Positions 46,711 through 63,587 of a DNA stretch of 64,000 nucleotides are shown one piece after another. The translations under genes were made by a program, and so were the position numbers. Below the pieces are notes generated by a model. That model worked only from the letters and a program-made list of their open reading frames with translations, was not told the DNA's origin and ran no database searches. The DNA comes from Escherichia coli (GTDB taxonomy: Bacteria; Pseudomonadota; Gammaproteobacteria; Enterobacterales; Enterobacteriaceae). The first letter of the stretch is position 1. Each line of letters opens with the position of its first letter. The stretch lies in NCBI RefSeq assembly GCF_036507355.1, contig NZ_AP027877.1. One strand, written 5' to 3'.

Positions 46711-46786
46711 TGGCTCCTCTGACTGGACTCGAACCAGTGACATACGGATTAACAGTCCGCCGTTCTACCGACTGAACTACAGAGGA
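46711..46786 (-). tRNA. asnV: tRNA-Asn (GUU)
   Basis: Minus strand is a 76-nt tRNA with anticodon loop CTGTTAA and CCA end; identical to the copies at 57216 and 59041. Confidence 0.95.
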
Positions 46787-47111
46787 ATCGTGTGAACGGG
46801 GCGCATATTAATGGCAGTGCATGGTGATGTCAAAGGGTGAAATGCATTTTTTTGTTTGTTTGCTGTCAATTTCAACAAAGTGGTGAGCTTTCAATCTTAT
46901 TGGCAATGAACCATCGTGGTGCATACCCTCCTTTTATTGGGCAGGGGAACGCGACTGCTGATAAAAAGTACCTATGACGAATCTATCATAATCTCTTATT
47001 TGACAGTTGGTTAGCTTGTACATCAACGCCAAAGCAAAACTGGCAAGCATCTTGCAGTCTGGTTGTAAGTAATGGCGGCACTTGGGCCGATTCTCAAAAA
47101 CCGGAGGCAAC

Positions 47112-48029
47112 ATGAACTTCAGACGCCTGAAATACTTCGTAAAAATTGTAGATATTGGTAGCCTGACTCAGGCTGCTGAAGTATTGCATATCGCACAACC
47201 AGCGCTCAGCCAGCAGGTTGCCACACTGGAAGGTGAGTTAAATCAACAACTTTTGATTCGCACAAAACGGGGCGTTACGCCAACAGACGCCGGAAAAATT
47301 CTCTATACCCATGCGCGGGCCATTTTACGTCAGTGTGAGCAGGCCCAACTGGCGGTGCATAACGTTGGTCAGGCATTATCGGGGCAAGTCTCGATTGGCT
47401 TTGCGCCAGGAACCGCTGCGTCATCTATCACCATGCCCTTATTACAAGCGGTTCGCGCTGAATTCCCGGAGATCGTTATCTATCTTCATGAAAATAGCGG
47501 TGCAGTGCTTAACGAAAAACTGATAAATCACCAACTCGATATGGCGGTGATTTATGAGCATTCCCCTGTGGCTGGTGTATCCAGTCAGGCTTTGCTGAAA
47601 GAAGAGCTTTTCCTGGTAGGAACTCAAGATTGCCCGGGGCAAAGCGTTGATGTTAATGCTATTGCGCAAATGAACCTCTTTCTCCCCAGTGATTACAGTG
47701 CTGTTAGACTTCGTGTTGATGAGGCGTTTTCCCTACGGCGACTCACGGCGAAAGTCATTGGTGAAATTGAGTCTATTGCCACGCTTACCGCAGCGATTGC
47801 CAGCGGCATGGGCGTTGCAGTATTACCCGAATCGGCCGCGCGTTCGTTATGTGGCGCAGTAAATGGGTGGATGTCACGCATTACCACGCCTTCCATGAGT
47901 CTCTCTTTGTCATTAAATTTACCCGCCAGAGCGAACTTATCGCCACAGGCACAGGCAGTGAAAGAGTTGTTAATGTCAGTGATTAGTTCTCCAGTGATGG
48001 AAAAAAGGCAGTGGCAATTGGTGTGCTAA
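47112..48029 (+). CDS. nac: Nitrogen assimilation control protein, LysR family (305 aa)
   Basis: Starts MNFRRLKYFVKIVDIGSLTQAAE; LysR HTH. Confidence 0.9.
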   Translation: MNFRRLKYFVKIVDIGSLTQAAEVLHIAQPALSQQVATLEGELNQQLLIRTKRGVTPTDAGKILYTHARAILRQCEQAQLAVHNVGQALSGQVSIGFAPGTAASSITMPLLQAVRAEFPEIVIYLHENSGAVLNEKLINHQLDMAVIYEHSPVAGVSSQALLKEELFLVGTQDCPGQSVDVNAIAQMNLFLPSDYSAVRLRVDEAFSLRRLTAKVIGEIESIATLTAAIASGMGVAVLPESAARSLCGAVNGWMSRITTPSMSLSLSLNLPARANLSPQAQAVKELLMSVISSPVMEKRQWQLVC

Positions 48030-48130
48030 GCGTTATATCGGGATGGAATAAGATGCGGGTTTTTATTATTTGTTATGCCGGGCGTTAGACTTTAACAATA
48101 ACGGGATATCAGAACTGCCCGGAGTTTACC

Positions 48131-49081
48131 GTGAATTTCCAACAACTAAAGATAATCCGCGAAGCTGCACGTCAGGATTACAACCTGACAGAGGTTGCGA
48201 ATATGCTTTTTACCTCACAGTCAGGCGTCAGCCGTCATATTCGGGAACTGGAGGATGAGCTTGGCATCGAAATATTTGTTCGACGAGGTAAGCGACTGCT
48301 GGGCATGACTGAACCGGGCAAAGCATTACTGGTCATTGCAGAACGTATTCTGAATGAAGCCAGTAATGTTCGTCGGCTTGCAGACCTGTTTACCAACGAT
48401 ACGTCTGGCGTTCTCACTATTGCAACGACGCATACTCAGGCACGTTATAGCTTGCCAGAGGTCATTAAAGCTTTTCGCGAACTTTTCCCGGAGGTTCGGC
48501 TCGAGCTAATCCAGGGGACGCCACAGGAAATTGCGACGTTGTTGCAAAATGGTGAAGCTGATATTGGTATCGCCAGCGAGCGTTTGAGTAATGACCCGCA
48601 GCTCGTCGCCTTCCCGTGGTTTCGTTGGCACCATAGTTTGCTTGTTCCACTCGATCATCCCTTGACGCAAATTACACCATTGACGCTGGAATCAATAGCG
48701 AAGTGGCCATTAATCACTTACCGACAGGGTATTACGGGGCGCTCACGCATTGATGACGCATTTGCCCGCAAAGGTTTGCTGGCAGATATTGTATTAAGTG
48801 CGCAGGATTCTGATGTCATTAAAACCTATGTTGCTCTTGGGCTTGGGATCGGAATAGTTGCCGAACAATCCAGCGGCGAACAAGAGGAAGAGAATTTAAT
48901 CCGCCTGGATACGCGGCATCTTTTCGATGCTAATACTGTCTGGTTGGGACTGAAGCGAGGACAACTTCAGCGTAACTATGTCTGGCGCTTTCTGGAACTT
49001 TGTAATGCAGGACTGTCAGTTGAGGATATCAAGCAGCAGGTGATGGAAAACAGTGAAGAGGAAATTGATTATCAGATATAG
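48131..49081 (+). CDS. cbl: CysB-like LysR-family regulator (316 aa)
   Basis: Starts MNFQQLKIIREAARQDYNLTEVA; CysB-like. Confidence 0.9.
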   Translation: MNFQQLKIIREAARQDYNLTEVANMLFTSQSGVSRHIRELEDELGIEIFVRRGKRLLGMTEPGKALLVIAERILNEASNVRRLADLFTNDTSGVLTIATTHTQARYSLPEVIKAFRELFPEVRLELIQGTPQEIATLLQNGEADIGIASERLSNDPQLVAFPWFRWHHSLLVPLDHPLTQITPLTLESIAKWPLITYRQGITGRSRIDDAFARKGLLADIVLSAQDSDVIKTYVALGLGIGIVAEQSSGEQEEENLIRLDTRHLFDANTVWLGLKRGQLQRNYVWRFLELCNAGLSVEDIKQQVMENSEEEIDYQI

Positions 49082-49118
49082 CAAAAAGCCCGCTATAAAA
49101 GCGGGCTTTTCAGAAATC

Positions 49119-49135
49119 TGGCTCCTCTGACTGGA
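49119..49135 (-). other. 17-bp fragment of the tRNA-Asn 3' end (island boundary repeat)
   Basis: tggctcctctgactgga matches the 3' end of tRNA-Asn; with the 5-bp flank aaatc it is a 22-bp direct repeat of 57211-57232. Confidence 0.8.
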
Positions 49136-49808
49136 TGCGGATTTTGTTGTAGTTTATTGAATTTAAATGATTTTTATGAGTAGAATAAAAATAAGGCCCT
49201 TAGAAAGGCCCCTCAGATATTTTTGCTTAAAAAGATGATGTAAGTCACATTTTCAGGGGCTGTTACCTGGAGGTCTTAAAACCAACGAGAGGTCGTCATT
49301 CCTGGCGTATAGCGGGAATGCACCAGACATACAGAAACAGGGACTTGCACCAGCTTTAATATAGCTGGCTGCACCAGATCCTGGCGCTGCAAAAGTCCAT
49401 GATTGCGCCAGATTCTGAGGGATTACATCGATCTGAGCCAGAGTTGTCCCTTTGGGTTATAGCCTTTTCAGGTCAGGTGCTGTTACCCTTAGCTGGCCTT
49501 TACCCTTTTCCTTTTGACCGTCGGCTATGTGCCAAAAGCGGAATTCCAGTGGTTCTAGAAAAGCTATCATTCCATGGTCAAATTTTGTCGATCACTGCAC
49601 TTATGGAACCGCCATAACATAGGTAGATAGTTGAAGATAGCTAGAACGATGATAGATGATTTTCTTTACAGGGCTGACTTCTAGTCTATCTCATGTAATA
49701 CTCTATATTATATCTAATGTACAATATTAATAGCATTGTGATGTATCGACAACATGGATAGTCCACTGCTATTAAAACTATAATGACATTTAATTGAGAA
49801 ATATAAAA

Positions 49809-50826
49809 ATGACTCTATTAGAAAAATTGTTATCAAAAGGATACTTTCCTAAAGAAGCTCTCCCTCCTTTCTCTACGGAAAAATATGCACGCGCAATTGT
49901 GAATGGATACGATAATCTTCCCCAATTATTTAGAACCGGAAAATTCATAAGTAAGTGCGCTATTCATAATATTTCCAGAAAAGGTACATTACGGAGAAAA
50001 CTTGGAATACCTAATCCCATCAACTTCTTTAGATTAAGTGAGGCAATAACTGAAAATTGGTACGATATATATGAATGCGCAAGTGAATCAACAATATCGT
50101 TGACAACTCCAGACCCTGCCAGCAATGGCGGAAGAGCATTCAACCCAAAGCATTCATTAAATGAGCTTCCAGATATTCATGCAAAACTTAGAAGTAAACA
50201 TAAATATATACTTAAAACCGATATAAGCAGATTTTACCACTCAATATACACTCATAGTATTGCATGGACTTACCATACAAAAGATATTTCAAAAAGAAAC
50301 AGAAGCAATAGTTTATTTGGCAATGTATTAGACAAGCATTCGCAAGATTCGCAAGATGGACAAACAATAGGGCTCCCCATTGGTCCAGATACATCACTTA
50401 TCATAGCAGAGTCTCTGTTATCAAATATTGATCTTAAGCTTAGCGAAAAAGGCATTAGCAATGGCTTACGTTATATAGATGATTATTTCCTAGGGTTCAA
50501 TACAATTGGGGAAGCAGAATCTGCATTAACAATAATGCAGGAACTGTTAAACGAATATGAGTTAGCATTGAACCCCTTGAAAACAGAAATCATACAATTA
50601 CCAATTGAATTCGAGCCATTAGCAATTTCAGAACTAAGGGCATTTTCATTTAGAGATACAGCTGGCGGTCAGAAATCAGATTTAATGCATTATTTCAACA
50701 TAGCTTTCAAGGCAGCAAAAGATTTACCAACGGAACCAATATTAAAATATGCAGTATCAAGGACATTTGAAGTAAATGTTACTGCTGAAAACTATCCTGT
50801 TTTTGAAAATTTTATATTACAATGTG
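49809..50826 (+). pseudogene. Reverse transcriptase, N-terminal 339 codons, interrupted by IS1
   Basis: RT motifs DISRFYHSIY, GLPIGPDTSL, YIDDYF (YxDD) and LNPLKTEI; the frame runs straight into the IS1 end at 50827. Confidence 0.8.
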
Positions 50827-50881
50827 GGTGATGCTGCCAACTTACTGATTTAGTGTATGATGGTGTTTTTGAGGTGCTCCA

Positions 50882-51157
50882 GTGGCTTCTGTTTCTATCA
50901 GCTGTCCCTCCTGTTCAGCTACTGACGGGGTGGTGCGTAACGGCAAAAGCACCGCCGGACATCAGCGCTATCTCTGCTCTCACTGTCGTAAAACATGGCA
51001 ACTGCAGTTCACTTACACCGCTTCTCAACCCGGTACGCACCAGAAAATCATTGATATGGCCATGAATGGCGTTGGATGCCGGGCAACAGCCCGCATTATG
51101 GGCGTTGGCCTCAACACGATTTTACGTCACTTAAAAAACTCAGGCCGCAGTCGGTAA
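50882..51157 (+). CDS. insA: IS1 InsA (91 aa)
   Basis: Zinc-finger N-terminus CPSC...CSHC; canonical IS1 ORF. Confidence 0.95.
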
Positions 51158-51579
51158 CCTCGCGCATACAGCCGGGCAGTGACGTCATCGTCTGCGCGGA
51201 AATGGACGAACAGTGGGGCTATGTCGGGGCTAAATCGCGCCAGCGCTGGCTGTTTTACGCGTATGACAGGCTCCGGAAGACGGTTGTTGCGCACGTATTC
51301 GGTGAACGCACGATGGCGACGCTGGGGCGTCTTATGAGCCTGCTGTCACCCTTTGACGTGGTGATATGGATGACGGATGGCTGGCCGCTGTATGAATCCC
51401 GCCTGAAGGGAAAGCTGCACGTAATCAGCAAGCGATATACGCAGCGAATTGAGCGGCATAACCTGAATCTGAGGCAGCACCTGGCACGGCTGGGACGGAA
51501 GTCGCTGTCGTTCTCAAAATCGGTGGAGCTGCATGACAAAGTCATCGGGCATTATCTGAACATAAAACACTATCAATAA
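51076..51579 (+). CDS. insB: IS1 InsB (transposase catalytic part, made as InsAB by frameshift)
   Basis: Canonical IS1 second ORF overlapping insA. Confidence 0.9.
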
Positions 51580-51602
51580 GTTGGAGTCATTACCTACAAT
51601 GT

Positions 51603-51881
51603 GTTACAGCTGACAGTAGCACATTAAAATACACCGTCAATCAGCTTATAAAATACAAAAGAATAGGTTATGTTCAGAACGTTGAGAACATTTCGCATAT
51701 TTTGAGACAATTAGCAATAACTGAAAGCTCACTTGGCCATGGACACGAAGTTGCTTATTGCCTATGGCTTTATTTGATACTACGCATCCCCATACCAGAA
51801 GTCGTCGTTAAAAATGTGGTACCAATGAGAGATCCATTTGTTGCAATTTTGTTATGCGATTGCAGGCAAAAAACCTCATGA
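51603..51881 (+). pseudogene. Reverse transcriptase C-terminal 92 codons displaced by IS1
   Basis: With one copy of the 9-bp duplication removed, the RT frame continues without stops from 51603 to TGA at 51879-51881. Confidence 0.7.
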
Positions 51882-52171
51882 CTTTTATACCTGATTTCTC
51901 AATTTATGAGCAAATGATGGTGATGGAAGAGCTATCGGGCGATATGTAGATTTTTGTCTATGAGATGCTTGCAAAAGGATGGTTTCAACCATTATCAAAC
52001 CAAAATCCAATTAGTCAAAATGAGTGTTATAGGTTCCTATTGAATTCAGGTGTTTTTTTCTATAATGAACATCTCTCATTAACTATTATGGCTGAAAGTC
52101 CAATTGATACAGATGGCTCGGCAGAGGGATTCAGTGGTTGAAATTAAAAATTATCTGTAAATAACTAACCC

Positions 52172-52210
52172 CCCTCCCTTTAATTTAATATTAAGGGAGG
52201 GTTGTGTTTC
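52172..52210 (+). terminator. Hairpin terminator downstream of the RT gene
   Basis: ccctccctt-(12 nt)-aagggaggg perfect 9-bp stem followed by ttgtgtttc; also marks a GC-content transition. Confidence 0.4.
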
Positions 52211-52449
52211 GATATACATATATGGGCTTTGGTGAATAAATCAGATTTGGGATAAACATCCCTGGAGACAGTTGCAGCTGTCAGGTAATACGCACGCTTT
52301 TTGCTCAGAACCCCATCAATGCGCCGCCAGCACTTTTGCAGCCAGCCCAGTCGGGTTACGCCGTCTGGACTCCCAACTTTTGATGATATCGACGCTGGTT
52401 CCTTAGGGTTATTGCGTAACGATTTATTCTGCGCCAGTCATGAAAGCCG

Positions 52450-53409
52450 TTATTCCTTCTTCCATTCGTGCGCGTAAACCTGCTTCACCCAGCGACCGCG
52501 CCCGTCGCCATGCCCCAGGTCCATCGCCACCATTGCCAGCGCCTCTTTTTCGCTGAATCCCTGCGCCAGATACCGGCGAATATCGTCCTGCGCCAGATAC
52601 CGGCGAATATCGTCCTGCGCCCAGGCGTAACGCAGCGAATGTGGGGAGTATTTGCCCGTCAGCCCCATACGCAAAGTCTGGTTGCGCCAGTATTTCATTG
52701 CCTGTTTAAGGCTTGCCGCATCAATCAGCCTGCCGTTGCGCAGTCCTGCCACCACAATGGCATTATCGAGCGCCCGTTTAACTGCGCCAGCATTCTGAAT
52801 AAGGGTATCGCGGGGCCGCCCGCCTTTGGTGCCAAACACGATGGTTAGCCGGGTGGCTCCACGTTCAAGCGACTGCCGCCACGTCAGCAATGAACGTGAA
52901 CAGCGTACCGCCTCCTGTGAACGTAACCCCATCAGCCGCGCCAGCTCCAGCGCTGCCGCCAGTCCTGCGTCTTTCAGCCGGGCAGTCTCTGCCATCTGTT
53001 GATAATATTCCGGCGTGATGGCTTTCCGTGTACCATTGCGGGATACGCCAGCCAGCCCCAGCGATTTATTCGATATCCGCTCACTCTGCGCCAGTTTTTC
53101 GCGCCCGGCCTGCGTCAGTATTTTACGGATAGCCGCCGTTTCGTTATGCAGCGTCTGTTTCTGAATACCCTGCGCCAGTCGCATCTGAATATACGCCTCA
53201 ATATGCTTCGCCTTTAAATGATGGACATAGCGTATCTGAACGTTCAGTTCCGTCAGTCGTTCGCAGAACCGTTCTGCCATGGCGATACGGTCATGGACAG
53301 TCTTGTGCGCCCCGCCAGCCTGCCGCGCCAGGTTTTTCATCTCTCTTTCCAGCATACCCATTTTGCTTTTCCTCTTATCTCGCTCCTGATTTTCACAAAA
53401 CCACAACAC
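52450..53409 (-). CDS. Tyrosine recombinase / phage-integrase-family protein with internal 9-aa tandem duplication (319 aa)
   Basis: C-terminal HSLRY...LGHGDGRGRWVKQVYAH resembles recombinase box II with catalytic Tyr; DDIRRYLAQ is duplicated through a 27-bp tandem repeat at 52561-52614. Confidence 0.6.
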   Translation of the reverse strand: MLWFCENQERDKRKSKMGMLEREMKNLARQAGGAHKTVHDRIAMAERFCERLTELNVQIRYVHHLKAKHIEAYIQMRLAQGIQKQTLHNETAAIRKILTQAGREKLAQSERISNKSLGLAGVSRNGTRKAITPEYYQQMAETARLKDAGLAAALELARLMGLRSQEAVRCSRSLLTWRQSLERGATRLTIVFGTKGGRPRDTLIQNAGAVKRALDNAIVVAGLRNGRLIDAASLKQAMKYWRNQTLRMGLTGKYSPHSLRYAWAQDDIRRYLAQDDIRRYLAQGFSEKEALAMVAMDLGHGDGRGRWVKQVYAHEWKKE

Positions 53410-54253
53410 ACAACGGATACAGCTTTCCCCGGCGCATAGGCCGATAGCCCCTGATTTTTGTCGGGGCTGCGAGCAGTACCTGAGCGCCGGGGCGACGGCT
53501 GTTGAGGTTTTGCGGGGTATCGGTTGTGCTCTCAGAGCAGCCGCCAGCGTGAGCTGGTCATCCCCCGGACCGTCCTGGTGGTCCCCCTCCGGTACTGGCT
53601 CATGTTCTCCTTTGGTGAATGAATGGTTGAAATAAATGCTGAAAAGCGACGTCAGAAGCTCGCCTGTGGCTGGAACAGTTGATATGACTGGTGCAGATGA
53701 AAATTTCTGCGGGCGTCAGTCTCTCACTCTGCGTGAGCGACTGACGCCCTGGTCTGGCGCAGGCGCTGAAAATTACACTCTGGTGCAGGATGGCGGCCAC
53801 GCGGCAGCAAATGCCTTCGGCAAATGCAGGCCGCAGCCCGTCATGTAAAGGGCGCTGGTAATCAGCAGGGTATAAGTGGGCCGGAGAAATTCCGGCAAAG
53901 AGAAACCGTGCAGCCGGTGAAGGCTGTTGCCGTTAAGCGATGACGATGAAGCCGTCCAGTGTATGTACTCTTAGCCTCAAACGCTTTCGCGTTCCGGTAT
54001 TGCGGAGGTCGTACCGGTAGCAGGGGGCTGGTCGTCCTGATAAATCAGGGGCTTCTTGCAGACCATGAAGCCAAAGGGGCTGTCAACCGACAGCTTATTG
54101 CAGGAGAGAGATTACACCGTAATTTCTGGCGCAGAAAGGGGAAACTCATTTTTCTGGAAATTGAGTTTCCCCCTGAATTTATGGAAAGTTTGTGAATGGA
54201 ACACTGCCGCGCTTCGCTTGTCGTCTCCCGGTGTGCGATTTGCTGTATCAGGA

Positions 54254-54502
54254 TCATCGCTTTCGCATGAACCTTTCCAGGCGATTACCTTTGCCGTCGA
54301 AGTATCTGGAAGGCCAGATGATCTCTGGAGCTATCTCCAGCGCATCTGCAATAAGTTTTTCTCCGCGCGGCCACGGGCGGGAAAGTGCATTTGCCAGTGT
54401 GGAAGAACTCAACCCTGCTTTACGCGATACCTCAGCCAGTGAGGTCCCTTTCTTTCTTAATCCGGCAATGATATCTGCCGGATGCCAGTCATCTTTATTC
54501 AT
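54254..54502 (-). CDS. Ner/Nlp-family DNA-binding protein (82 aa)
   Basis: DWHPADIIAGLRKKGTSLAEVSRKAGLSSSTLANALSRPWPRGE closely matches the Ner/Nlp family signature. Confidence 0.8.
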   Translation of the reverse strand: MNKDDWHPADIIAGLRKKGTSLAEVSRKAGLSSSTLANALSRPWPRGEKLIADALEIAPEIIWPSRYFDGKGNRLERFMRKR

Positions 54503-54614
54503 TGTTTTCCCCTGTTTCCAAATCTGGTTTTTCTGACTTTAGGAACTCTAAAGGCAATGAATCTTAAGGAATGCTAAAGATGGTGTCAATGTAACTATTA
54601 ACCAAACAGGTTAT

Positions 54615-54914
54615 ATGATCCCTGAACGACTCAAGGCAGCGAGGTTGCGGGCTAATCTCACCCAGGAACAACTGGGCGTTCGTGCAGGCATCGCCGAAGA
54701 TACGGCCTGCTCCCGGCTTTCTCAGTACGAAAGTGGAACACACAAGCCCACATTCAAAATGGTTTGTGCCTTTGCTCGTGTTTTGCATGTTCCTGAATGT
54801 TACTTCTATGCACAGGAAGACACTTTCGCCGAAGCGATTTTAAGGCTGTATGACGGTGAAACTGTGCAGTGGAATATAAAAACAGAGATCGTTCATCATA
54901 CTGAACGGGTATAA
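54615..54914 (+). CDS. XRE-family HTH regulator, copy 1 (99 aa)
   Basis: HTH region LTQEQLGVRAGIAEDTA...YESGTHKP; paralogue of the next gene. Confidence 0.7.
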   Translation: MIPERLKAARLRANLTQEQLGVRAGIAEDTACSRLSQYESGTHKPTFKMVCAFARVLHVPECYFYAQEDTFAEAILRLYDGETVQWNIKTEIVHHTERV

Positions 54915-55013
54915 ACCTCTTGCCTCATCCATCCTCTTTATGAACTCTAAAGAAAAATGCTCTTGAGGAATGCTAAAGATTACCGTCATAAATTCAAACT
55001 GATGGTAATTTCA

Positions 55014-55283
55014 ATGATCCCCAAACGCTTAAAAGAAGCCAGATTGCGGGCTAAACTCACTCAGGAAAAATTGGGGGTACTGGCGGGTATTGAAGAAGCC
55101 ACGGCTTATTCGCGTCTGTCACATTACGAGAGTGGTACGCATAAACCAACTTTTGATCTCGTTTGTGAGTTTGCCCGAGTACTCAATGTACCAGAATGCT
55201 ATTTCTATACGGTGGATGATGATTTCGCGCAGGCGGTGTTGGATCTTCATGCCAGGTGGACAAAGAGAACTACGGAAAGATAG
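55014..55283 (+). CDS. XRE-family HTH regulator, copy 2 (89 aa)
   Basis: MIPKRLKEARLRAKLTQEKLGV... about 60% identical to copy 1; start aligned to copy 1. Confidence 0.65.
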   Translation: MIPKRLKEARLRAKLTQEKLGVLAGIEEATAYSRLSHYESGTHKPTFDLVCEFARVLNVPECYFYTVDDDFAQAVLDLHARWTKRTTER

Positions 55284-55304
55284 ATCGCAGAAAATAAAAA
55301 ACCC

Positions 55305-55390
55305 CGCTGGTGAGGCAGGGTTCTTTATTTTTCGTTCTCAGACTGCTTATAGCGACCTGAGCAACGTTGCGCGACAATACAATCCTAGCA
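55305..55390 (-). ncRNA. Candidate antisense sRNA antitoxin (Orz/IstR-like), predicted from promoter, repeat and terminator
   Basis: Minus-strand promoter-like elements (-35 ttgcaa, palindromic, at 55419-55424; -10 taaact from 55396-55401); transcript would begin inside repeat 55369-55392 and end at a hairpin plus T-run near 55300-55335. Confidence 0.3.
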
Positions 55391-55418
55391 GAATAAGTTT
55401 AACCCGCTTTGTTTCCCG

Positions 55419-55448
55419 TTGCAAACAAACGCTCCCGGTCTTTATAAT
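55419..55448 (+). promoter_or_regulatory. Sigma70-like promoter for the toxin mRNA (-35 TTGCAA, 18-bp spacer, -10 TATAAT)
   Basis: ttgcaa at 55419-55424 and tataat at 55443-55448 on the plus strand; gives a 5' UTR of roughly 180 nt. Confidence 0.45.
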
Positions 55449-55634
55449 GCCAGACGCTGGGTTTATCACGTTTCAGGCCAGACCGATTTCAAGCCCTGAC
55501 TGCCGGACGGGTGGTGCCGCAGGCAGTGCCCCGGTCTGGAGCGTGATAATACAATCCTAGCAGATGTGATCCTGCGCCGACAGGCAATGTAAGGGTAAGG
55601 TGCAGGCGTTGCGCTCCTTTCATAAGGAGAGCGG

Positions 55635-55724
55635 ATGGACATGTTGACGCGAAAGCTGATCGTGCTCATCGCCGTACTGGAGCTTTTGCTGGCTCTGCTG
55701 CGGTTGATTGATCTGTTGAAATAA
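55635..55724 (+). CDS. Candidate type I toxin, 29-aa hydrophobic peptide MDMLTRKLIVLIAVLELLLALLRLIDLLK
   Basis: ATG at 55635 five nt after AGGAG; single predicted TM helix; similar in length and composition to ZorO/DinQ/TisB-type toxins; followed by a hairpin terminator. Confidence 0.55.
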   Translation: MDMLTRKLIVLIAVLELLLALLRLIDLLK

Positions 55725-55744
55725 TTCTCAGATTGAAACGCACC

Positions 55745-55770
55745 AAAGGGGAAACACCCGTTTCCCCTTT
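55745..55770. terminator. Bidirectional hairpin terminator between the toxin ORF and the integrase gene
   Basis: aaaggggaaac-accc-gtttccccttt with A/T runs on both sides. Confidence 0.6.
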
Positions 55771-55788
55771 AATAAATACGCTGCTTTG

Positions 55789-57066
55789 TTACGACGCCTG
55801 TTTCAGGCGGCGGGCATACTGGTAAGCTGAAACATACCCGTCACTGTTTGCATCAAGATAATCTGACCACCATTGCATCATCTCGATCCGCTCTTCCAGA
55901 TATTCAGCCTTGTGAATATACGCAGCGCGGACGCTGTTTCTTTCCTGGTGACTCATTTGTTTTTCAATCGCTTCTTTGCTCCACAGCCCCGATTCACTCA
56001 ACGCACTACATGCCATCGCCCGGAAGCCATGCCCGCAGACGTCTTTTTTGGTGTCATAGCCCATCACCCGCAGCGCTTTATTCACGGTGTTGTCGCTCAT
56101 GCACTTATCCTGGTCGTACTCGCCGGGAAAGATAAAGGCCAGATGACCGGAGAGGGCTTCGATCTGTTTCAGGATCGCAATTGCCTGATCCGACAGCGGC
56201 ACGATATGTTGAATTTTCATTTTCGACCCCCGGTAAGAGAAGCGCACATTTTCGATCTGCTCGCGTTCTTCCGCGATCACCCACAGCTTTTGCTGCCAGT
56301 CGATTTCACTCCAGCGAGCAAAGCGTAGCTCGCTGGAGCGCACAAAAAATATCAGTGACAACTTAAGGGCGTATTTCGTCAGCAGCCTGCCGCAGTAGTT
56401 ATCCGTACGGGTTAAAAGCTCTGGCAGCCTGTCCAGCGACAGGGCCGGGTAATGATTAGTCTCTGGCGCAGCAAATTCACCATCCAGATACAGCGCGGGG
56501 TTCGCTTTGAGCAACTGCTTTTTCATCGCGTAGTGCATGATGTCGGTGACATAGTTTTTCAGCCGGGCGGTGATCTCCAGAAAGCCTTTGCTCTCCACCT
56601 TACGCAGCGTGACCAGCAAATCCTCTGTTTCGATCTCCCCGATAAGGCGATCCCCGATATCCGGGAAAACATACATTTCCAGTCTGCGCATAACCGTTTT
56701 CGCGTAATGTTCAGACCAGCGTTTATGCTCGCCATGCCAGTTAGTGGCGACCTGGCTGAACGTCTGTCCGTTTTTCTTCTTCTGTTTCTCCGTCTGCTTC
56801 ACCGCAGCAGGATCGACGCCTGCATGAATGTTATTGCGTGCCGCTTCCCGTAAACGGCGAGCCTGCAACAGCGAGATCCCCGGGTAGGGGCCAAAGGCCA
56901 GCTTTTTCTCTTTCCCGTCGATACGGTACTTCATGTACCAGAGTTTTGAGCCATTAGGTTTGATCAACAGGTACAGTCCGGAACTGTCTGTCATTTTGAA
57001 AGGTTTGTCGGAGGGTTTGATCTTGCGAATCGTGGTATCTGTTAATGCCATAGCGGGGGGCTCCAT
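55789..57066 (-). CDS. P4-family tyrosine integrase (425 aa)
   Basis: N-terminal arm-binding domain (LTDTTIRKIKPSDKPFKMTDSSGLYLLIKPNGSKLWYMKYR) plus C-terminal catalytic domain; adjacent to the tRNA-Asn 3' end. Confidence 0.9.
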   Translation of the reverse strand: MEPPAMALTDTTIRKIKPSDKPFKMTDSSGLYLLIKPNGSKLWYMKYRIDGKEKKLAFGPYPGISLLQARRLREAARNNIHAGVDPAAVKQTEKQKKKNGQTFSQVATNWHGEHKRWSEHYAKTVMRRLEMYVFPDIGDRLIGEIETEDLLVTLRKVESKGFLEITARLKNYVTDIMHYAMKKQLLKANPALYLDGEFAAPETNHYPALSLDRLPELLTRTDNYCGRLLTKYALKLSLIFFVRSSELRFARWSEIDWQQKLWVIAEEREQIENVRFSYRGSKMKIQHIVPLSDQAIAILKQIEALSGHLAFIFPGEYDQDKCMSDNTVNKALRVMGYDTKKDVCGHGFRAMACSALSESGLWSKEAIEKQMSHQERNSVRAAYIHKAEYLEERIEMMQWWSDYLDANSDGYVSAYQYARRLKQAS

Positions 57067-57215
57067 TTGCTCACCGAACCGTGAGGCCCCCGATTAAGCC
57101 CACAAAAACTATGGATGTCAAGAAACCCGGTAGCCTCTTGTGAGACAACCGGGTAAAGATAAGTTCTTGTTTTTTAACTATCTCGAGACTCATAGAGATG
57201 TCTCAAAACTAAAAT

Positions 57216-57291
57216 CTGGCTCCTCTGACTGGACTCGAACCAGTGACATACGGATTAACAGTCCGCCGTTCTACCGACTGAACTACAGAGG
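57216..57291 (-). tRNA. asnU: tRNA-Asn (GUU), island integration target
   Basis: 76-nt minus-strand tRNA identical to the other copies. Confidence 0.95.
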
Positions 57292-57452
57292 AATCGCTGT
57301 TGAGGCACATCTTAACGGCGAAAAATCTTTTGTCAAACCCGATTTTTAAATTCCCCAACTGTTTGCCGTTTCTATCAACAGTTTGTTGCATTTGCAGACA
57401 ATTTGTTGGCGAAAATCTTTGCAGCTTTGCTGATTCTCCCTCATTATTTGAA

Positions 57453-58940
57453 ATGTGGTTTCACTTTCTGCAATTAAGGTCGGCTTTGAATATCTCCTCT
57501 GCTTTACGCCAGGTTGTTCACGGCACTCGCTGGCACGCTAAACGCAAGAGCTACAAAGTGTTGTTCTGGCGCGAGATAACCCCGCTTGCTGTTCCTATCT
57601 TCATGGAGAATGCCTGTGTCCTGTTGATGGGGGTTCTGAGCACTTTTCTGGTCAGCTGGCTGGGAAAAGATGCGATGGCCGGCGTGGGATTGGCGGACAG
57701 CTTCAATATGGTCATTATGGCTTTTTTTGCTGCTATCGATCTTGGTACTACTGTCGTTGTGGCATTTAGTCTCGGTAAGCGGGATCGACGACGAGCGAGG
57801 GTGGCGACGCGGCAGTCATTGGTGATCATGACGTTGTTTGCCGTACTGTTGGCAACGCTTATTCATCATTTTGGCGAACAAATTATTGATTTCGTCGCGG
57901 GTGATGCCACGACAGAAGTTAAAGCACTGGCGTTGACTTATCTGGAGCTGACGGTACTCAGTTATCCAGCAGCTGCCATCACTTTGATTGGTAGCGGGGC
58001 ACTTCGTGGTGCAGGGAATACGAAAATACCGCTACTGATTAACGGTAGCCTGAATATTCTTAATATTATTATTAGCGGCATATTGATTTACGGCCTTTTC
58101 TCCTGGCCGGGACTGGGATTTGTCGGGGCTGGGTTGGGTTTAACCATTTCTCGTTATATTGGCGCAGTTGCAATTTTGTGGGTGCTGGCGATTGGTTTTA
58201 ATCCTGCGCTAAGGATTTCGTTAAAGAGCTATTTTAAACCGCTGAATTTTAGCATTATCTGGGAAGTCATGGGGATTGGTATTCCCACGAGTGTCGAATC
58301 AGTGTTATTTACCAGTGGTCGGTTATTAACCCAAATGTTCGTTGCCGGGATGGGGACCAGTGTTATTGCCGGAAATTTTATCGCGTTTTCAATTGCGGCT
58401 CTTATCAACTTACCCGGAAGTGCGCTCGGCTCTGCTTCTACGATCATTACAGGCCGAAGGTTGGGGGTAGGGCAGATAGCGCAAGCAGAGATTCAGTTGC
58501 GGCATGTGTTCTGGCTGTCCACTCTTGGATTAACGACCATCGCCTGGCTAACGGCTCCCTTTGCCGGGGTTATGGCATCGTTTTACACCCAGGATCCACA
58601 GGTTAAACATGTCGTTGTGATTCTGATTTGGCTAAATGCTTTATTTATGCCTATTTGGTCCGCCTCATGGGTGCTACCCGCTGGATTTAAAGGTGCTCGT
58701 GATGCCCGTTACGCCATGTGGGTTTCGATGTTGAGCATGTGGGGTTGTCGGGTTGTCGTCGGTTATGTGCTGGGAATCATGCTTGGCTGGGGTGTGGTTG
58801 GTGTCTGGATGGGAATGTTTGCCGACTGGGCTGTGCGGGCCGTGCTGTTTTACTGGCGAATGGTTACTGGACGTTGGCTATGGAAATACCCTCGATCCGA
58901 GCCGCAAAAGTGTGAAAAAAAGCCAGTTGTGTCGGAATAA
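57453..58940 (+). CDS. yeeO: MATE-family efflux transporter (495 aa)
   Basis: 12-TM MATE protein; start set at ATG 57453 because the track start 57300 abuts the tRNA. Confidence 0.8.
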   Translation: MWFHFLQLRSALNISSALRQVVHGTRWHAKRKSYKVLFWREITPLAVPIFMENACVLLMGVLSTFLVSWLGKDAMAGVGLADSFNMVIMAFFAAIDLGTTVVVAFSLGKRDRRRARVATRQSLVIMTLFAVLLATLIHHFGEQIIDFVAGDATTEVKALALTYLELTVLSYPAAAITLIGSGALRGAGNTKIPLLINGSLNILNIIISGILIYGLFSWPGLGFVGAGLGLTISRYIGAVAILWVLAIGFNPALRISLKSYFKPLNFSIIWEVMGIGIPTSVESVLFTSGRLLTQMFVAGMGTSVIAGNFIAFSIAALINLPGSALGSASTIITGRRLGVGQIAQAEIQLRHVFWLSTLGLTTIAWLTAPFAGVMASFYTQDPQVKHVVVILIWLNALFMPIWSASWVLPAGFKGARDARYAMWVSMLSMWGCRVVVGYVLGIMLGWGVVGVWMGMFADWAVRAVLFYWRMVTGRWLWKYPRSEPQKCEKKPVVSE

Positions 58941-59040
58941 ACGACAAAATGCAGATTATTTCAGCAAACGATTTCAAATTTAAAAAACAGGCTTTGACAT
59001 TGTGGGTGGGCATCGCTAATATTCGCCTCGTTCTCACGAT

Positions 59041-59116
59041 TCCTCTGTAGTTCAGTCGGTAGAACGGCGGACTGTTAATCCGTATGTCACTGGTTCGAGT
59101 CCAGTCAGAGGAGCCA
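59041..59116 (+). tRNA. asnW: tRNA-Asn (GUU)
   Basis: tcctctgtagttcagtcggtagaacggcggactgttaatccgtatgtcactggttcgagtccagtcagaggagcca. Confidence 0.95.
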
Positions 59117-59564
59117 AATTTTAGTTTTGAGACATCTCTATGAGTCTCAAGGCAGTTAAAAAATAAAAATTATTTTTACCCGGTCACTTTGTAAAAAAGC
59201 GACCGGGTTTTTTGATATCTGTGTTTCGTGCGCTTAATCGAGCCTCACGCTTCAGTGAGCAAATTGCCCTCCCCAACAGACATCACGATTTGCAAGGTCA
59301 AAATCTCTGTTCCATGAAGTACCGTACAAAGATAAAGAGAACAATGCTTTATGCGGGATGTTGCTGTCGTGTCTTTATCGGGAAACTATACGTAATTACC
59401 ACTTGCCTTCTGTAATCAGAAAAAGAAGACCTGGAATTTTAATAAATATTATTTCTCTGGGGGAATTTTTATAATCAATATGACGAGTTGAATATTATAT
59501 TTTTTATAAGGATTATATGAGATTAAAGAAATCTGCCATAAAGACAGATTTCTTTAAAATATAA

Positions 59565-60281
59565 TTAGAGATTTGCGACGTTATGATAAACTTTTTGTAC
59601 ATCGTCGTCATCTTCAAGGGCATCAACAAGCCCTTCAAAGATTTCTAAATCTTCTGGGGAAAGCTCAACTTCTGATTGAGCAATCATTTCTAATTCTGTT
59701 GTTGAGAACTCAGTGATTCCAGCTGCTTTTAGAGCCGCGATTCCTTTATGAAGGTCAGTAGGTTCAGTATAAATAACAATGTTACCTTCTTCTTCAGTCA
59801 CATCACGAACATCAACTTCAGCTTCAAGTAAAATTTCAAAAATATGGTCAGGGTCTGTTCCTTTAAATACAATCACACCCGTATTGTCAAACATATAGCT
59901 GACAGAACCTGCCGCTCCGATATTGCCGCCTTTTTTATTGAAAATTGTGCGAACGTTAGCAATCGTACGGTTAACATTTGAAGTTAATGTCTCAGCGATA
60001 ATCATTGAGCCATTAGGACCAAAGCCTTCATAACGTCCCTGCACGAACGTTTCATCTCCGCCGCCTTTAGCTTTATCAATTGCTTTATCAATAACGTGCT
60101 TTGGAACTTGTGCCTGCTTTGCTCGTTCAATAACGAATTTTAAAGATGTGTTTAATTCTGGATCGGGTTCACCTTGTTTGGCAGCAGCATAGATTTCTAC
60201 ACCGAATTTTGCATAAATTTTAGACGTTGCACCGTCTTTAGCCGTTTTTTTAGCAACAATATTGGCCCATTTACGTCCCAC
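59565..60281 (-). CDS. yeeN: YebC/PmpR-family transcriptional regulator (238 aa)
   Basis: Family signature and position next to amn. Confidence 0.85.
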
Positions 60282-60623
60282 TGGAATGATCTCCTCGAAA
60301 ATTTATTTACATTACTGGTAAATCGTTAACATGTGTTAATTCGGCATATTATATCATAACAGGAAAAATCTCGTCTATTAGAAATAAAAATATTCTAAAG
60401 TCATAATCTCATATTTAATTTTATAAAAACTTATATTGTTGGCGGGATTTTTTATAATTGTGTTTTGAAAGCATACTTGCTTTTAATATGTGGAAATCAT
60501 TAAGACGATAATAAAACTCGTATCCGCCCAAGGAAGCAAACAGCCCGCGTTTATTGCGGGCTATTTGCCAGATGTCTTACTTAATCCTTCACATCTATTT
60601 TTGATAAGAAGGTTCAGAACTTA

Positions 60624-62078
60624 TTATCGGAACGGCGGCTCATTAAAGGTTCGTAATTTACGTGAATGCAGTCGGTCGCCTTCTGCGCGCAGCAAATCGA
60701 TCGCCCGAATGCCAATTTGCAGGTGTTCGGAAATAGCACCTTCATAAAAACGGTTAGCCTGGCCGGGAAGTTTAATCTCGCCATGCAACGGTTTATCTGA
60801 AACACACAGTAGTGTCCCGTATGGCACGCGGAAACGATATCCTTGCGCGGCAATGGTTGCACTTTCCATATCAATTGCTACGGCCCGGCTTAAGTTAAAA
60901 CGAAGTGCAGAAGCTGAGTAACGTAATTCCCAGTTCCTGTCATCAGTGGTTACTACAGTGCCAGTACGTAGCCGCTGTTTAACTTCCTCACCGGGCCTGC
61001 CGCTCACCAGCTTGGTGGCGTCATAAAGCGCACGTTGCACTTCAGCAATGCTCGGAATAGGAATATCGGGCGGCAGAACCGCATCAAGAACGTGGTCATC
61101 GCGTAAATAAGCGTGTGCAAGTACATAATCGCCAATGGCCTGACTTTCACGTAATCCGCCACAGTGACCAATCATCAACCAGACATCCGGGCGTAGCACT
61201 GCCAGATGATCGCAGATGGTTTTAGCATTTGACGGTCCCACGCCAATATTCACCAGAGTAATACCCTGACCATCGGCGGTAATTAAATGCCATGCTGGCA
61301 TCTGGTGTTTTTTCCATGCAAGGTCGGAAATGGCTTCTTCTGGCGCTTCGGTTTCGGCGGTGATCCAGTTCCCGCCAGCACAAGAAAGGGCAATGTAGGG
61401 ACTATCAGGATCGAGGATCTGGCTGCATCCCCAACGAACGAATTCATCCACATAACGTGTGTAGTTGGTAAACAAGACGAACGGCTGAAAATGTTCAACT
61501 GGCGTACCGGTATAATGGCGCAACCGTGCGAGGGAAAAATCGACGCGGCGCGCATCAAAATGCGATAGCGGGGAGAATTCAGTTGGATGATAAATGCCGT
61601 CTGCAGTTTCATCGCCAATTTGCGCCAGTTCTGTTGTCGGGAAGTAGCGAGTTAACCCAGCGCTCATTGAGCGATCAAGTGTCAATTCAGAGCCATCGAT
61701 GACATAAGGATAAGGGATTTCATGCTGCGAGGGTTGCACCGAGATATGCGCACCATAATCCTGATACAGCAACGTAAGTTGTTCATTAAGATACGAACGA
61801 AAGAGAGTAGGGCGAGTAATCGTGGTGGTGTAGCTGCCTGCGTGAGTAAAACGACCAAATGCGCGCGTTTTGGGGGGATTGGTTGTGCTACCGTCCCAGG
61901 TTACGGTCAGTGATGGATAGACAAAAAGACCTTGTTTGCGGGCGTTTTCATCAGGTAATTCGCCACTTGTAATATAGTTGCCAATGGCGTTGCGTAATGC
62001 GACTACAGATTGCTCATACAGCGCGTCGAGTTTATCCAGTGCCTGAGCTGGGGTCAGACCGGAGCCCTTATTATTCAT
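60624..62078 (-). CDS. amn: AMP nucleosidase (484 aa)
   Basis: Start at MNNKGSGLTPAQALD; the longer ORF in the track is an upstream extension. Confidence 0.9.
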   Translation of the reverse strand: MNNKGSGLTPAQALDKLDALYEQSVVALRNAIGNYITSGELPDENARKQGLFVYPSLTVTWDGSTTNPPKTRAFGRFTHAGSYTTTITRPTLFRSYLNEQLTLLYQDYGAHISVQPSQHEIPYPYVIDGSELTLDRSMSAGLTRYFPTTELAQIGDETADGIYHPTEFSPLSHFDARRVDFSLARLRHYTGTPVEHFQPFVLFTNYTRYVDEFVRWGCSQILDPDSPYIALSCAGGNWITAETEAPEEAISDLAWKKHQMPAWHLITADGQGITLVNIGVGPSNAKTICDHLAVLRPDVWLMIGHCGGLRESQAIGDYVLAHAYLRDDHVLDAVLPPDIPIPSIAEVQRALYDATKLVSGRPGEEVKQRLRTGTVVTTDDRNWELRYSASALRFNLSRAVAIDMESATIAAQGYRFRVPYGTLLCVSDKPLHGEIKLPGQANRFYEGAISEHLQIGIRAIDLLRAEGDRLHSRKLRTFNEPPFR

Positions 62079-62179
62079 GTGTGTCTCCTGTTCCATACAA
62101 TTACCGCACATCCGATAGTATGTCACAGGAATGTGAAACAAAAGTGTAAGGCGAAGATCGGATGATCTTCGCCAGGCTA

Positions 62180-63496
62180 TCAAGCGCGTTGATTGTCTTT
62201 CATCAACAAAGCGGTTATTGCGGAAATCAGGCATCCAGCCAGCAAATAAATGGCGACGCTATGCCAGTTCCCGGCAAAGTAAGTGATGAGTGCAGCGGCA
62301 ATAAAAGGTGTAAATCCACCACCAACCACACTGGCAACCTGATAACCGACTCCAGCGCCACTATAGCGATAACTGGCACCAAACATTTCGGTAAACATCG
62401 GTTGTTGCACACACACCACCATGTCATGCGCAATGTTTGCCAGCATTATGGAGAAGAAAACTATCCAGAAAATAGATTGTGCTTCAAGCGCCATAAAGAA
62501 AGGAAATGCGCTCAACGTTCCGATCAACGCGCCTGTGATATAAACCCTGCGGCGACCAAAACGATCGGCAAGCCAGGCAAAACAGGGAATTGTCAGGCAG
62601 CTTAATCCACCTACCAGCAAACCAATATTAAGGAAAAGTTCGCGCGGTAACCCCATATTCTGAGTTGAATAATTAAGTGCAAAGGCGGTAACGATGTACA
62701 TTGTCAGCAACTCGCACAGTCGTAGCGCAATAATCTTCAGGAAAGCACCGGGATGTCGTAACAGAGCTTCGATAACCGGGATACGTTTTTTCGCGGCCGC
62801 TTGATTATGTTGCTGTTGTTCGAATTCCGCGGACTCCTCCATGCCATTGCGCACCCACAATGCTCCCAGTACCAGTACGATGCTAAACAGGAAAGGAATA
62901 CGCCAGCCCCAGCTTAAAAACTGTTCGTCAGTCGTCATCATACTGATCAATGAAACTAGTCCGGTTGAAAGCAGTAAACCTACACCGTAGCCAACTTGTA
63001 CACCGCTACTGTAAAAGGCTTTTTTATTTTTTGGTGCACTTTCAACGGAAAGCAACGCCGCGCCTCCCCATTCGCCGCCGACGGCAAATCCCTGAATGGC
63101 ACGCAGCGTCACCAGTAAAATAGGTGCCCACCACCCAATGGTCGAGAATGAAGGAAGAATACCAATCAAGGCTGTCGCGATGCCCATCATCCAGACGGTC
63201 AGCATTAACATGCGCTTACGTCCCAGTCGGTCGCCAAAGTGACCGAAAATGACACCGCCGAGCGGACGGAAAAGGAATCCGACGCCAAAGGTAGCAAATG
63301 CGGCGAGCGTTCCCATCGCCGGGCTTACTTGCGGGAAAAACTCGCGATTAAACACCAGTGCGGCGGTAATGCCATAGAGTAAAAAATCATACCAGTCGAC
63401 GACGGCACCAGCGAAACTGCCTAACGCAGCTCGTCGGGCGCGACTTAACGAAACCGTCCTTTCATCGGGACGAGTGGAGATGAGCGTGGAGTCCAT
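62180..63496 (-). CDS. shiA: Shikimate transporter, MFS (438 aa)
   Basis: 12-TM MFS sugar-porter-like sequence; position next to amn. Confidence 0.85.
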   Translation of the reverse strand: MDSTLISTRPDERTVSLSRARRAALGSFAGAVVDWYDFLLYGITAALVFNREFFPQVSPAMGTLAAFATFGVGFLFRPLGGVIFGHFGDRLGRKRMLMLTVWMMGIATALIGILPSFSTIGWWAPILLVTLRAIQGFAVGGEWGGAALLSVESAPKNKKAFYSSGVQVGYGVGLLLSTGLVSLISMMTTDEQFLSWGWRIPFLFSIVLVLGALWVRNGMEESAEFEQQQHNQAAAKKRIPVIEALLRHPGAFLKIIALRLCELLTMYIVTAFALNYSTQNMGLPRELFLNIGLLVGGLSCLTIPCFAWLADRFGRRRVYITGALIGTLSAFPFFMALEAQSIFWIVFFSIMLANIAHDMVVCVQQPMFTEMFGASYRYSGAGVGYQVASVVGGGFTPFIAAALITYFAGNWHSVAIYLLAGCLISAITALLMKDNQRA

Positions 63497-63587
63497 AATG
63501 ATCCTGTTTGTACTGTCTTTTTATAATTAGTATGGAAAAGGTAACTCACATTGCCGTCGATCTATAAACTGAATCGCCACGGATAAT

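Follow-up and report, generated by a model that had tools for sequence, protein, structure and literature searches.

The intergenic stretch described here lies between a helix-turn-helix (HTH) gene and the integrase gene of an island integrated at tRNA-Asn, in a 64,000-nucleotide window of Escherichia coli DNA (RefSeq assembly GCF_036507355.1, contig NZ_AP027877.1), and RefSeq annotates nothing from the one gene to the other. A reading of the letters (the original prediction) had proposed that it holds a type I toxin-antitoxin module, with a 29-residue hydrophobic peptide held in check by a small RNA (sRNA) transcribed divergently from it. The zor-orz loci of this kind (zorO-orzO, zorP-orzP and zorQ-orzQ) are known from E. 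coli, Shigella and E. fergusonii (PMC2887945, PMC3919570, PMC5397157, PMC11264685); the first description of the zorO-orzO / zorP-orzP locus is that of Fozo et al. 2010 (PMC2887945), and its characterisation is due to Wen et al. 2014, 2017 (PMC3919570, PMC5397157). Comparison with these loci indicates that the window locus is very probably a zor-orz-family type I toxin-antitoxin module, in a divergent copy carried on a mobile island. Its features, in window coordinates, with positions in the toxin mRNA counted from the predicted +1, are as follows.

55291-55331, both strands: bidirectional terminator hairpin (stem 55316-55301), symmetric, with A-runs and T-runs on either side
55296-55389, minus strand: predicted orz-like antitoxin sRNA gene, about 94 nt, its start at G55389 placed by homology to the mapped OrzO +1
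55369-55389, minus strand: sRNA 5' seed of 21 nt, predicted to pair with the toxin mRNA through 19 Watson-Crick and 2 G.U pairs
55401-55396, minus strand: putative -10 of the orz-like promoter, TAAACT, 17 nt from the common -35, where canonical orzO has TATAAT
55419-55424, both strands: palindromic -35 hexamer TTGCAA, common to the two divergent promoters
55443-55448, plus strand: -10 TATAAT of the zor-like promoter
55456-55634, plus strand: structured 5' untranslated region (UTR) of the toxin mRNA, 179 nt, its +1 placed by alignment with the zorO start
55456-55479, plus strand: mRNA 5' end, predicted to pair with +78 to +106 (inverted repeat, minimum free energy fold, covarying columns 1-6/101-106 and 13-24/78-91)
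55538-55561, plus strand: counterpart of the 'EAP' region of zorO, made up of a GGAGCG standby-like motif (55538-55543) and the 21-nt sRNA target (55541-55561, +86 to +106)
55614-55629, plus strand: hairpin CUCCUU-UCAU-AAGGAG predicted to sequester the Shine-Dalgarno (SD) sequence, all of its pairs invariant across the family
55635-55724, plus strand: zor-like toxin open reading frame (ORF), 29 codons and a stop, encoding MDMLTRKLIVLIAVLELLLALLRLIDLLK
55745-55770, plus strand: terminator hairpin of the toxin mRNA, an inverted repeat that aligns with the 3' hairpin of zorO/zorP and faces the 3' end of the integrase gene

The 29-codon ORF and its ribosome-binding site are present as originally read, with AAGGAG at 55624-55629 standing 5 nt before the ATG. 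The peptide has the length of ZorO and is identical to it at 25 of 29 residues; the changes are T3M, Q6R, T9I and V19L, and the island peptide is none of the described variants O, P (T3S) or Q (A20S) (PMC11264685). Mutagenesis of ZorO targeted the charged residues D2, K7, E16, R23, D26 and K29, and toxicity could be abolished at each of them save D2 (PMC9860968); all six are retained. Against zorO the ORF differs by nine synonymous and four non-synonymous codon changes, and against two further island-type alleles, called D7 and ECO95 and described below, by three and none, and by eight and one, respectively. This excess of synonymous change suggests selection on the toxin ORF and speaks for the zor-orz reading. 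No NCBIfam model matches the peptide at E values up to 1. An incomplete literature check, by full-text search with the C-terminal 11-mer (which is common to ZorO) and against the variant strings in the PMC11264685 supplement, returned no description of the variant and lends weak support to its being new.

The resemblance to zorO-orzO that the original prediction had noted is borne out at the level of both peptide and DNA. Of 5,426 complete E. coli genomes, 3,399 gave a match in a sensitive BLASTN search. Almost all of these matches cover window positions 55481-55776 (296 nt) at about 79% DNA identity, and this identity to the canonical zorO/zorP of O157:H7 spans the UTR, the ORF and the terminator. 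In O157:H7 the canonical matches are located between yehL and yehK, and their products are MDTLTQKLTVLIAVLELLVALLRLIDLLK and its T3S variant. The yehI-yehL intergenic region is the location of the described zor-orz members and the only one named in the literature consulted (PMC2887945), whereas the window locus is flanked by an HTH gene on one side and by the integrase of the tRNA-Asn island on the other; the location is typical of the family and is no mechanistic requirement. Over the 551 bases 55250-55800 the window agrees with the chromosome of E. coli G4/9 at every position (100% identity), and over 47001-63582 the identity is about 99.9%, save for one IS1 insertion elsewhere in the island.

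The plus-strand promoter proposed earlier, TTGCAA-18-TATAAT at 55419-55448, scores 10/12 and is the sole promoter-like site called in 54900-56000. TTGCAA is stated to be the -35 of the zor-orz family (PMC11264685), and it is invariant in all eight family sequences with extracted promoter coordinates. With the +1 set at G55456 by alignment to the zorO start, the UTR comes to 179 nt, close to the estimate of about 180 nt, and contains the downstream copy of the 24-nt repeat discussed below; the zorO UTR is 174 nt (PMC5397157). Read on to the terminator hairpin at 55745-55770, the toxin transcript would be about 320 nt long.

On the minus strand, canonical orzO has its -10 TATAAT 17 nt from the palindromic -35, and the mapped 5' end of OrzO (GUUGGUACG...) lies seven bases past the -10. 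The window has the same geometry, with the common -35, a 17-nt spacer and a +1 G seven nt past the -10, and the sRNA start is therefore most likely at G55389, which means that 21 of the 24 repeat bases would be transcribed. The minus-strand promoter envisaged in the original prediction was thus right in its shared -35, but the RNA is predicted at about 94 nt rather than 85, from G55389, and its weak -10 was not called by the promoter scan. The hairpin and T-run expected to end this RNA near 55300-55335 were found at 55291-55331; the hairpin probably ends the sRNA on the minus strand and, on the plus strand, the HTH gene 54957-55283. It is kept as well in the island of strain A30, which is without orz, and isolated matches to an orz 3' end therefore need not mean an antitoxin gene.

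Among Rfam families the minus-strand RNA is closest to OrzO-P (RF02083), which it matches at 55296-55371 over the full model length with 47.8 bits (E = 1.4e-05); the same model gives 99.9 bits for canonical orzP and 88.8 for canonical orzO. ohsC (RF02495) reaches 32.1 bits (E = 0.047) against a gathering threshold of 50, the match lying over the terminator end of the RNA. The predicted fold of the sRNA has a free 5' region, a middle hairpin, an A-rich linker and the terminator (-29.9 kcal/mol, z = -2.5), and a consensus structure with the canonical Orz RNAs preserves this layout.

The repeat was recovered exactly as proposed, its copies at 55369-55392 and 55541-55564 matching at 22 of 24 positions. 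When the region was shuffled 60 times with its dinucleotides preserved, the best 24-mer match had a mean of 15.5 and stayed at or below 17, and a search of the 64 kb with the 21-nt target pattern, allowing up to three mismatches, returned two sites only, both of them the repeat copies, where none was expected. Nucleotides 1-21 of the sRNA are predicted to pair without interruption with +86 to +106 of the UTR, which upholds the pairing in trans that had been proposed and puts it at the matching position of the UTR: by the same analysis the OrzO site on zorO is at +85 to +102. Repression by OrzO requires 15 continuous base pairs, or 17 discontinuous nucleotides (PMC3919570), and the island pair offers 21 contiguous base pairs from the first nucleotide of the sRNA. 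The pairing sequence itself is unrelated to that of OrzO or OrzP. The cognate duplex is predicted at -40.1 kcal/mol, compared with -18.9 with OrzO and -28.0 with OrzP, and no pairing of cognate length was predicted between island-type and canonical partners (OrzO/OrzP, zorO/zorP), where it amounted to at most 11 bp, off target. With such a private pairing sequence the module would be insulated from canonical zorO/zorP copies. Among the genomes with the D7-type module, those listed have two further matches each (one genome has one) at the identity level of the canonical locus; G4/9 has none.

Two other island-type alleles were available for comparison, D7 from 24 complete E. coli genomes and four public contigs (three from metagenomes, one from a metagenome-assembled genome (MAG)) and ECO95 from a 1.5-kb wastewater contig deposited as unverified phage. 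The D7 allele has 20 bp of perfect pairing between sRNA and target and the ECO95 allele 21 bp, each by a different sequence, and an indel together with substitutions appears simultaneously in both repeat copies of these two alleles. The window allele resembles an intermediate, D7-like on the sRNA side and ECO95-like on the target side, and both of the mismatches between its repeat copies run toward G.U, not A.C. As judged from these sequences, the predicted pairing co-varies between sRNA and target across the three island-type alleles. In a further ECO95-type sequence, OR851665.1 (a 'Salmonella phage S.Kent 1-2-1' fragment, positions about 197-514), exactly the interval between the two 21-nt repeat copies is deleted, so that the 3' part of orz runs into the distal zor UTR and both promoters are lost; this reflects either recombination between the repeats or misassembly of a contig of 2.5x coverage.

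The UTR shows a corresponding pattern. Minimum free energy folds of the window mRNA and of zorO share their topology, with the first approximately 24 nt paired to +78 to +106 and the SD sequence in a local hairpin. Eight family UTRs fold to a consensus of 48 pairs, of which six show compensatory double changes, and the compensatory pairs at columns 2/105, 4/103, 14/90, 20/82 and 23/79 fall in the helix between 5' end and target. The window mRNA begins GCUGGG and the sRNA GCUAGG, and the target ends CCUAGC, where the canonical counterparts are GUUGGG, GUUGG and CCAAC; mRNA 5' end, sRNA 5' end and target thus appear to vary together across lineages. On prediction and covariation, then, the locus has the long structured UTR of the family, with a sequestered ribosome-binding site and a 5'-end helix that would close the standby region. 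In zorO the full-length mRNA is inert, and the loss of 28 nt opens the region +73 to +102, termed 'EAP', and promotes translation; OrzO binds this region at its 3' end (PMC5397157). A conserved GGAG(T/A)G motif within it is required for full toxicity (PMC11264685), and the window counterpart, GGAGCG at 55538-55543, overlaps the start of the sRNA target. The three-way change fits the published zorO model, in which the antitoxin competes for the region exposed by 5' processing.

By analogy with zorO, the plus strand would give an mRNA of about 320 nt for a membrane-active peptide of 29 residues, homologous to ZorO. The primary mRNA would be untranslatable, both because its SD sequence is held in the local hairpin and because its first 24 nt or so, paired with +78 to +106, shut the GGAG standby region; removal of the 5' end would open that region and permit translation. 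From the minus strand, the promoter with the common palindromic -35 would yield the sRNA of about 94 nt, whose nucleotides 1-21, bound to +86 to +106, would block ribosome loading at the standby region and probably trigger RNase III cleavage, as for OrzO. Should the sRNA be lost, the peptide would be made. Overproduction of ZorO depolarises the inner membrane and arrests growth (PMC9860968), and overproduction of the island peptide would do the same. The data on toxicity, Orz rescue and RNase III dependence are for the zorO-orzO of EDL933 alone (PMC3919570). Thus, while homology, anatomy, complementarity, covariation and predicted structure are established for the island locus itself, we infer its transcription, processing, toxicity and repression, and any stabilisation of the island, from the canonical system.

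Island-type copies are rare. The BLASTN search returned a near-full-length copy in 25 of the 5,426 complete E. coli genomes and a short partial match in one more. When 100,044 genomes were scanned for the conserved UTR block GGCANTGTAAGGGTAAGGTGC, matches were found in Escherichia (E. whittamii and an Escherichia sp.), in one MAG contig labelled 'Bacillota', and in one Actinomycetota MAG, the last by chance. The 'Bacillota' contig is identical to the E. coli D7 allele and is possibly a binning error. The scan used an exact 21-mer and the ECO95 allele differs within the block, so the host range beyond Escherichia may be underestimated. A scan of metagenomes with an island-specific 26-mer returned three copies, all of the D7 allele, and a scan of IMG/VR no matches. 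Among plasmids we found no island-type copies, only those of canonical type, in E. coli records. Carriage by phages was considered on account of two 1.5-kb wastewater contigs labelled 'UNVERIFIED_ORG'; these were treated as fragments of bacterial islands and not as phage evidence.

The 22-nt direct repeat AAATCTGGCTCCTCTGACTGGA occurs at 49114-49135 and 57212-57233, one copy overlapping the 3' end of a tRNA-Asn, and the two copies are probably the attachment (att) sites bounding an integrative island of about 8 kb at tRNA-Asn. Its order is a Drt4/Drt6-like reverse transcriptase (RT), a small integrase with an EFASI RNA, three HTH genes, the zor-orz-like module and a P4-type tyrosine integrase:

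49794-52141: Drt4/Drt6-like antiviral RT (PADLOC Drt4, 493 bits)
53470-53603, minus strand: EFASI RNA (Rfam RF02957), full length, 112.4 bits against a gathering threshold of 51.2; adjoins, upstream, the start of the ORF 52450-53409
54254-54502, strand opposite to the tandem pair below: third HTH gene, SfsB-like
54615-54914 and 54957-55283, plus strand: two tandem paralogous HTH genes (PADLOC 'Control_protein', 77-82 bits; a weak match to an RstR-type repressor model)

An IS1 at 50827-51594 interrupts the RT gene in the window; the G4/9 record is without that insertion, and its RT gene is already split into ORFs of 431 and 87 residues. The window thus represents a very close relative of the G4/9 record and not exactly that sequence. 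The ORF 52450-53409 (minus strand), an atypical small 'integrase domain-containing' gene, has a 9-residue motif, AQDDIRRYL, tandemly duplicated near its C-terminus. Within 13 kb there are three tRNA genes that score identically in Rfam (46714-46786, 57220-57292 and 59041-59113), all annotated as tRNA-Asn in G4/9. Related islands integrate at different tRNA-Asn copies, the D7-type island at the one adjoining mtfA.

The D7 allele is found at the equivalent place of a related island, which has other cargo and is integrated at another tRNA-Asn gene. Integrases at least 90% identical are found in about 72 genomes, just 25 of which have the module. In the islands of E. coli A30 and 2016C-3878, whose integrases are 90-92% identical, this slot is taken by a type II RelE/ParE toxin with an 'addiction module antidote', lying between the last HTH gene of the island (A30) or other cargo (2016C-3878) and the integrase. 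Homology to the window ends in these sibling islands at about 55327 and resumes at about 55733-55793, so that the exchanged segment is bounded by two terminator hairpins; in these alignments, breakpoints at terminator hairpins suggest cassette exchange of toxin-antitoxin modules. The equivalence of the slot with that of a type II pair is independent, circumstantial support for a toxin-antitoxin function, and points to island maintenance.

Several observations weigh against reading the locus as a working zor-orz module. The OrzO-P score of 47.8 bits is below the gathering threshold of 60, with no match in a scan at that threshold, and part of it comes from the terminator hairpin that is present also in the orz-less island; on the sequence comparison we regard the island sRNA as a divergent relative beyond the current curated OrzO-P boundary. 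Just three island-type alleles were found, which leaves few independent lineages for each covariation event. The zor promoter has a spacer of 18 nt, compared with 16 in the canonical and D7 alleles, and the -10 of the sRNA (TAAACT in the window, TACACT at the same position in D7) falls far short of the canonical TATAAT in strength and was below the cut-off of the promoter scan, so the antitoxin could be poorly made. The evidence for an island-stabilising role, moreover, is purely positional. The promoter features are also what one would expect of a decaying or silent relic, in which the antitoxin promoter has degenerated and the toxin is held off by its own UTR or not made, and such a relic would be in keeping with the neighbouring RT cargo already broken by IS1 in the window and with the incomplete loci (orz only) common in E. 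coli (PMC11264685). However, the ORF is intact with a synonymous excess across alleles, compensatory changes maintain pairing in three alleles, and the -10 core T-A---T, the common -35 and its spacing, the SD hairpin and both terminators have all been kept, which makes decay improbable. Still less probable, to the point where we give it little weight, is that the 24-nt repeat acts as DNA, for example as a pair of operators around the toxin promoter for an adjacent HTH protein. Three HTH genes do lie directly upstream, two of them matching defence 'control protein' models, and the repeat copies stand 172 bp apart on either side of the promoter region; but the canonical loci between yehL and yehK, which are not next to any HTH gene, have their repeats arranged in the same way, and there the repeat works through RNA pairing, as established by mutagenesis (PMC3919570). 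In addition, both differences between the copies are compatible with G.U pairing, the upstream copy begins where the mapped OrzO 5' end aligns, and the mRNA 5' end covaries with the same target, which is sensible only for RNA.

For the zor-orz module so identified, the most likely role, from its slot beside the integrase, is stabilisation of the tRNA-Asn defence island. The same module could instead serve in stress or aminoglycoside tolerance, or in phage defence beside the Drt-type cargo: growth in aminoglycosides is reported to be better with multiple zor-orz copies (PMC9860968, PMC11264685), the island carries a Drt4/Drt6-like defence RT, and its HTH genes match defence control-protein models. 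On the other hand, sibling islands fill the slot with an unrelated type II addiction pair, in one case beside RHS-family proteins, and the presence of such a pair whatever the cargo favours a generic maintenance function tied to the integrase end; we therefore consider these other roles doubtful, if deserving of attention. A fuller proposal, which we offer tentatively, is that the locus is a mobile, exchangeable addiction cassette that swaps with RelE/ParE pairs at the integrase end and, through post-segregational killing, stabilises small tRNA-Asn defence islands; its pairing code, of which the mRNA 5' end has a copy, would have evolved against cross-talk with resident zorO/zorP. If this is true, the island copy would be the first of the zor-orz type to have a clear role in a mobile element. 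The use of the same slot by type II addiction modules offers a concrete hypothesis for the physiological role of zor-orz. Independently of role, RefSeq, the Rfam OrzO-P threshold and NCBIfam all miss the locus, which implies that small toxin genes of this kind are undercounted, and the three further matched sRNA-target pairs add to the known O, P and Q alleles as natural specificity variants.

The tisB-istR and dinQ-agrB loci named in the original prediction share its architecture only. In tisB-istR1, shoB-ohsC and dinQ-agrB, as in the window locus, a divergent sRNA is complementary over a short stretch (about 20 nt) to the long, structured 5' UTR of the toxin mRNA, and the primary transcript is inert, with a standby-site logic, but neither peptide nor UTR gave sequence homology to these systems, and membership in the tisB, dinQ or shoB families was rejected. 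The RelE/ParE-antidote pair of the sibling islands shares the slot and an annotated toxin-antitoxin or addiction function, and differs in having a protein antitoxin and an mRNA-interferase-type toxin that are unrelated in sequence and mechanism.

With the zor-orz loci the island copy has in common a homologous 29-residue toxin that retains the charged residues, a UTR of about 175-180 nt that is likewise homologous, with matching predicted helices and a sequestered SD sequence, a divergent sRNA with the common palindromic TTGCAA -35 whose 5' end pairs at the corresponding position in the UTR (the EAP/standby region), and homologous terminators. It differs in its unrelated and longer pairing sequence (21 bp compared with 18), in an sRNA about 11 nt longer at the 5' end than the canonical Orz RNAs (MAFFT alignment), with a weak -10 and a score under the Rfam OrzO-P threshold, in having just about 79% DNA identity on the zor side, in its rarity, and in adjoining the integrase of a tRNA-Asn integrative island and not lying in the yehI-yehL intergenic region. 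The known zor-orz mechanism is unchanged by the island copy; what sets it apart from the described members is the peptide variant, the private and longer pairing code, the weaker sRNA promoter, the sub-threshold Rfam score of the sRNA and residence on a mobile island.

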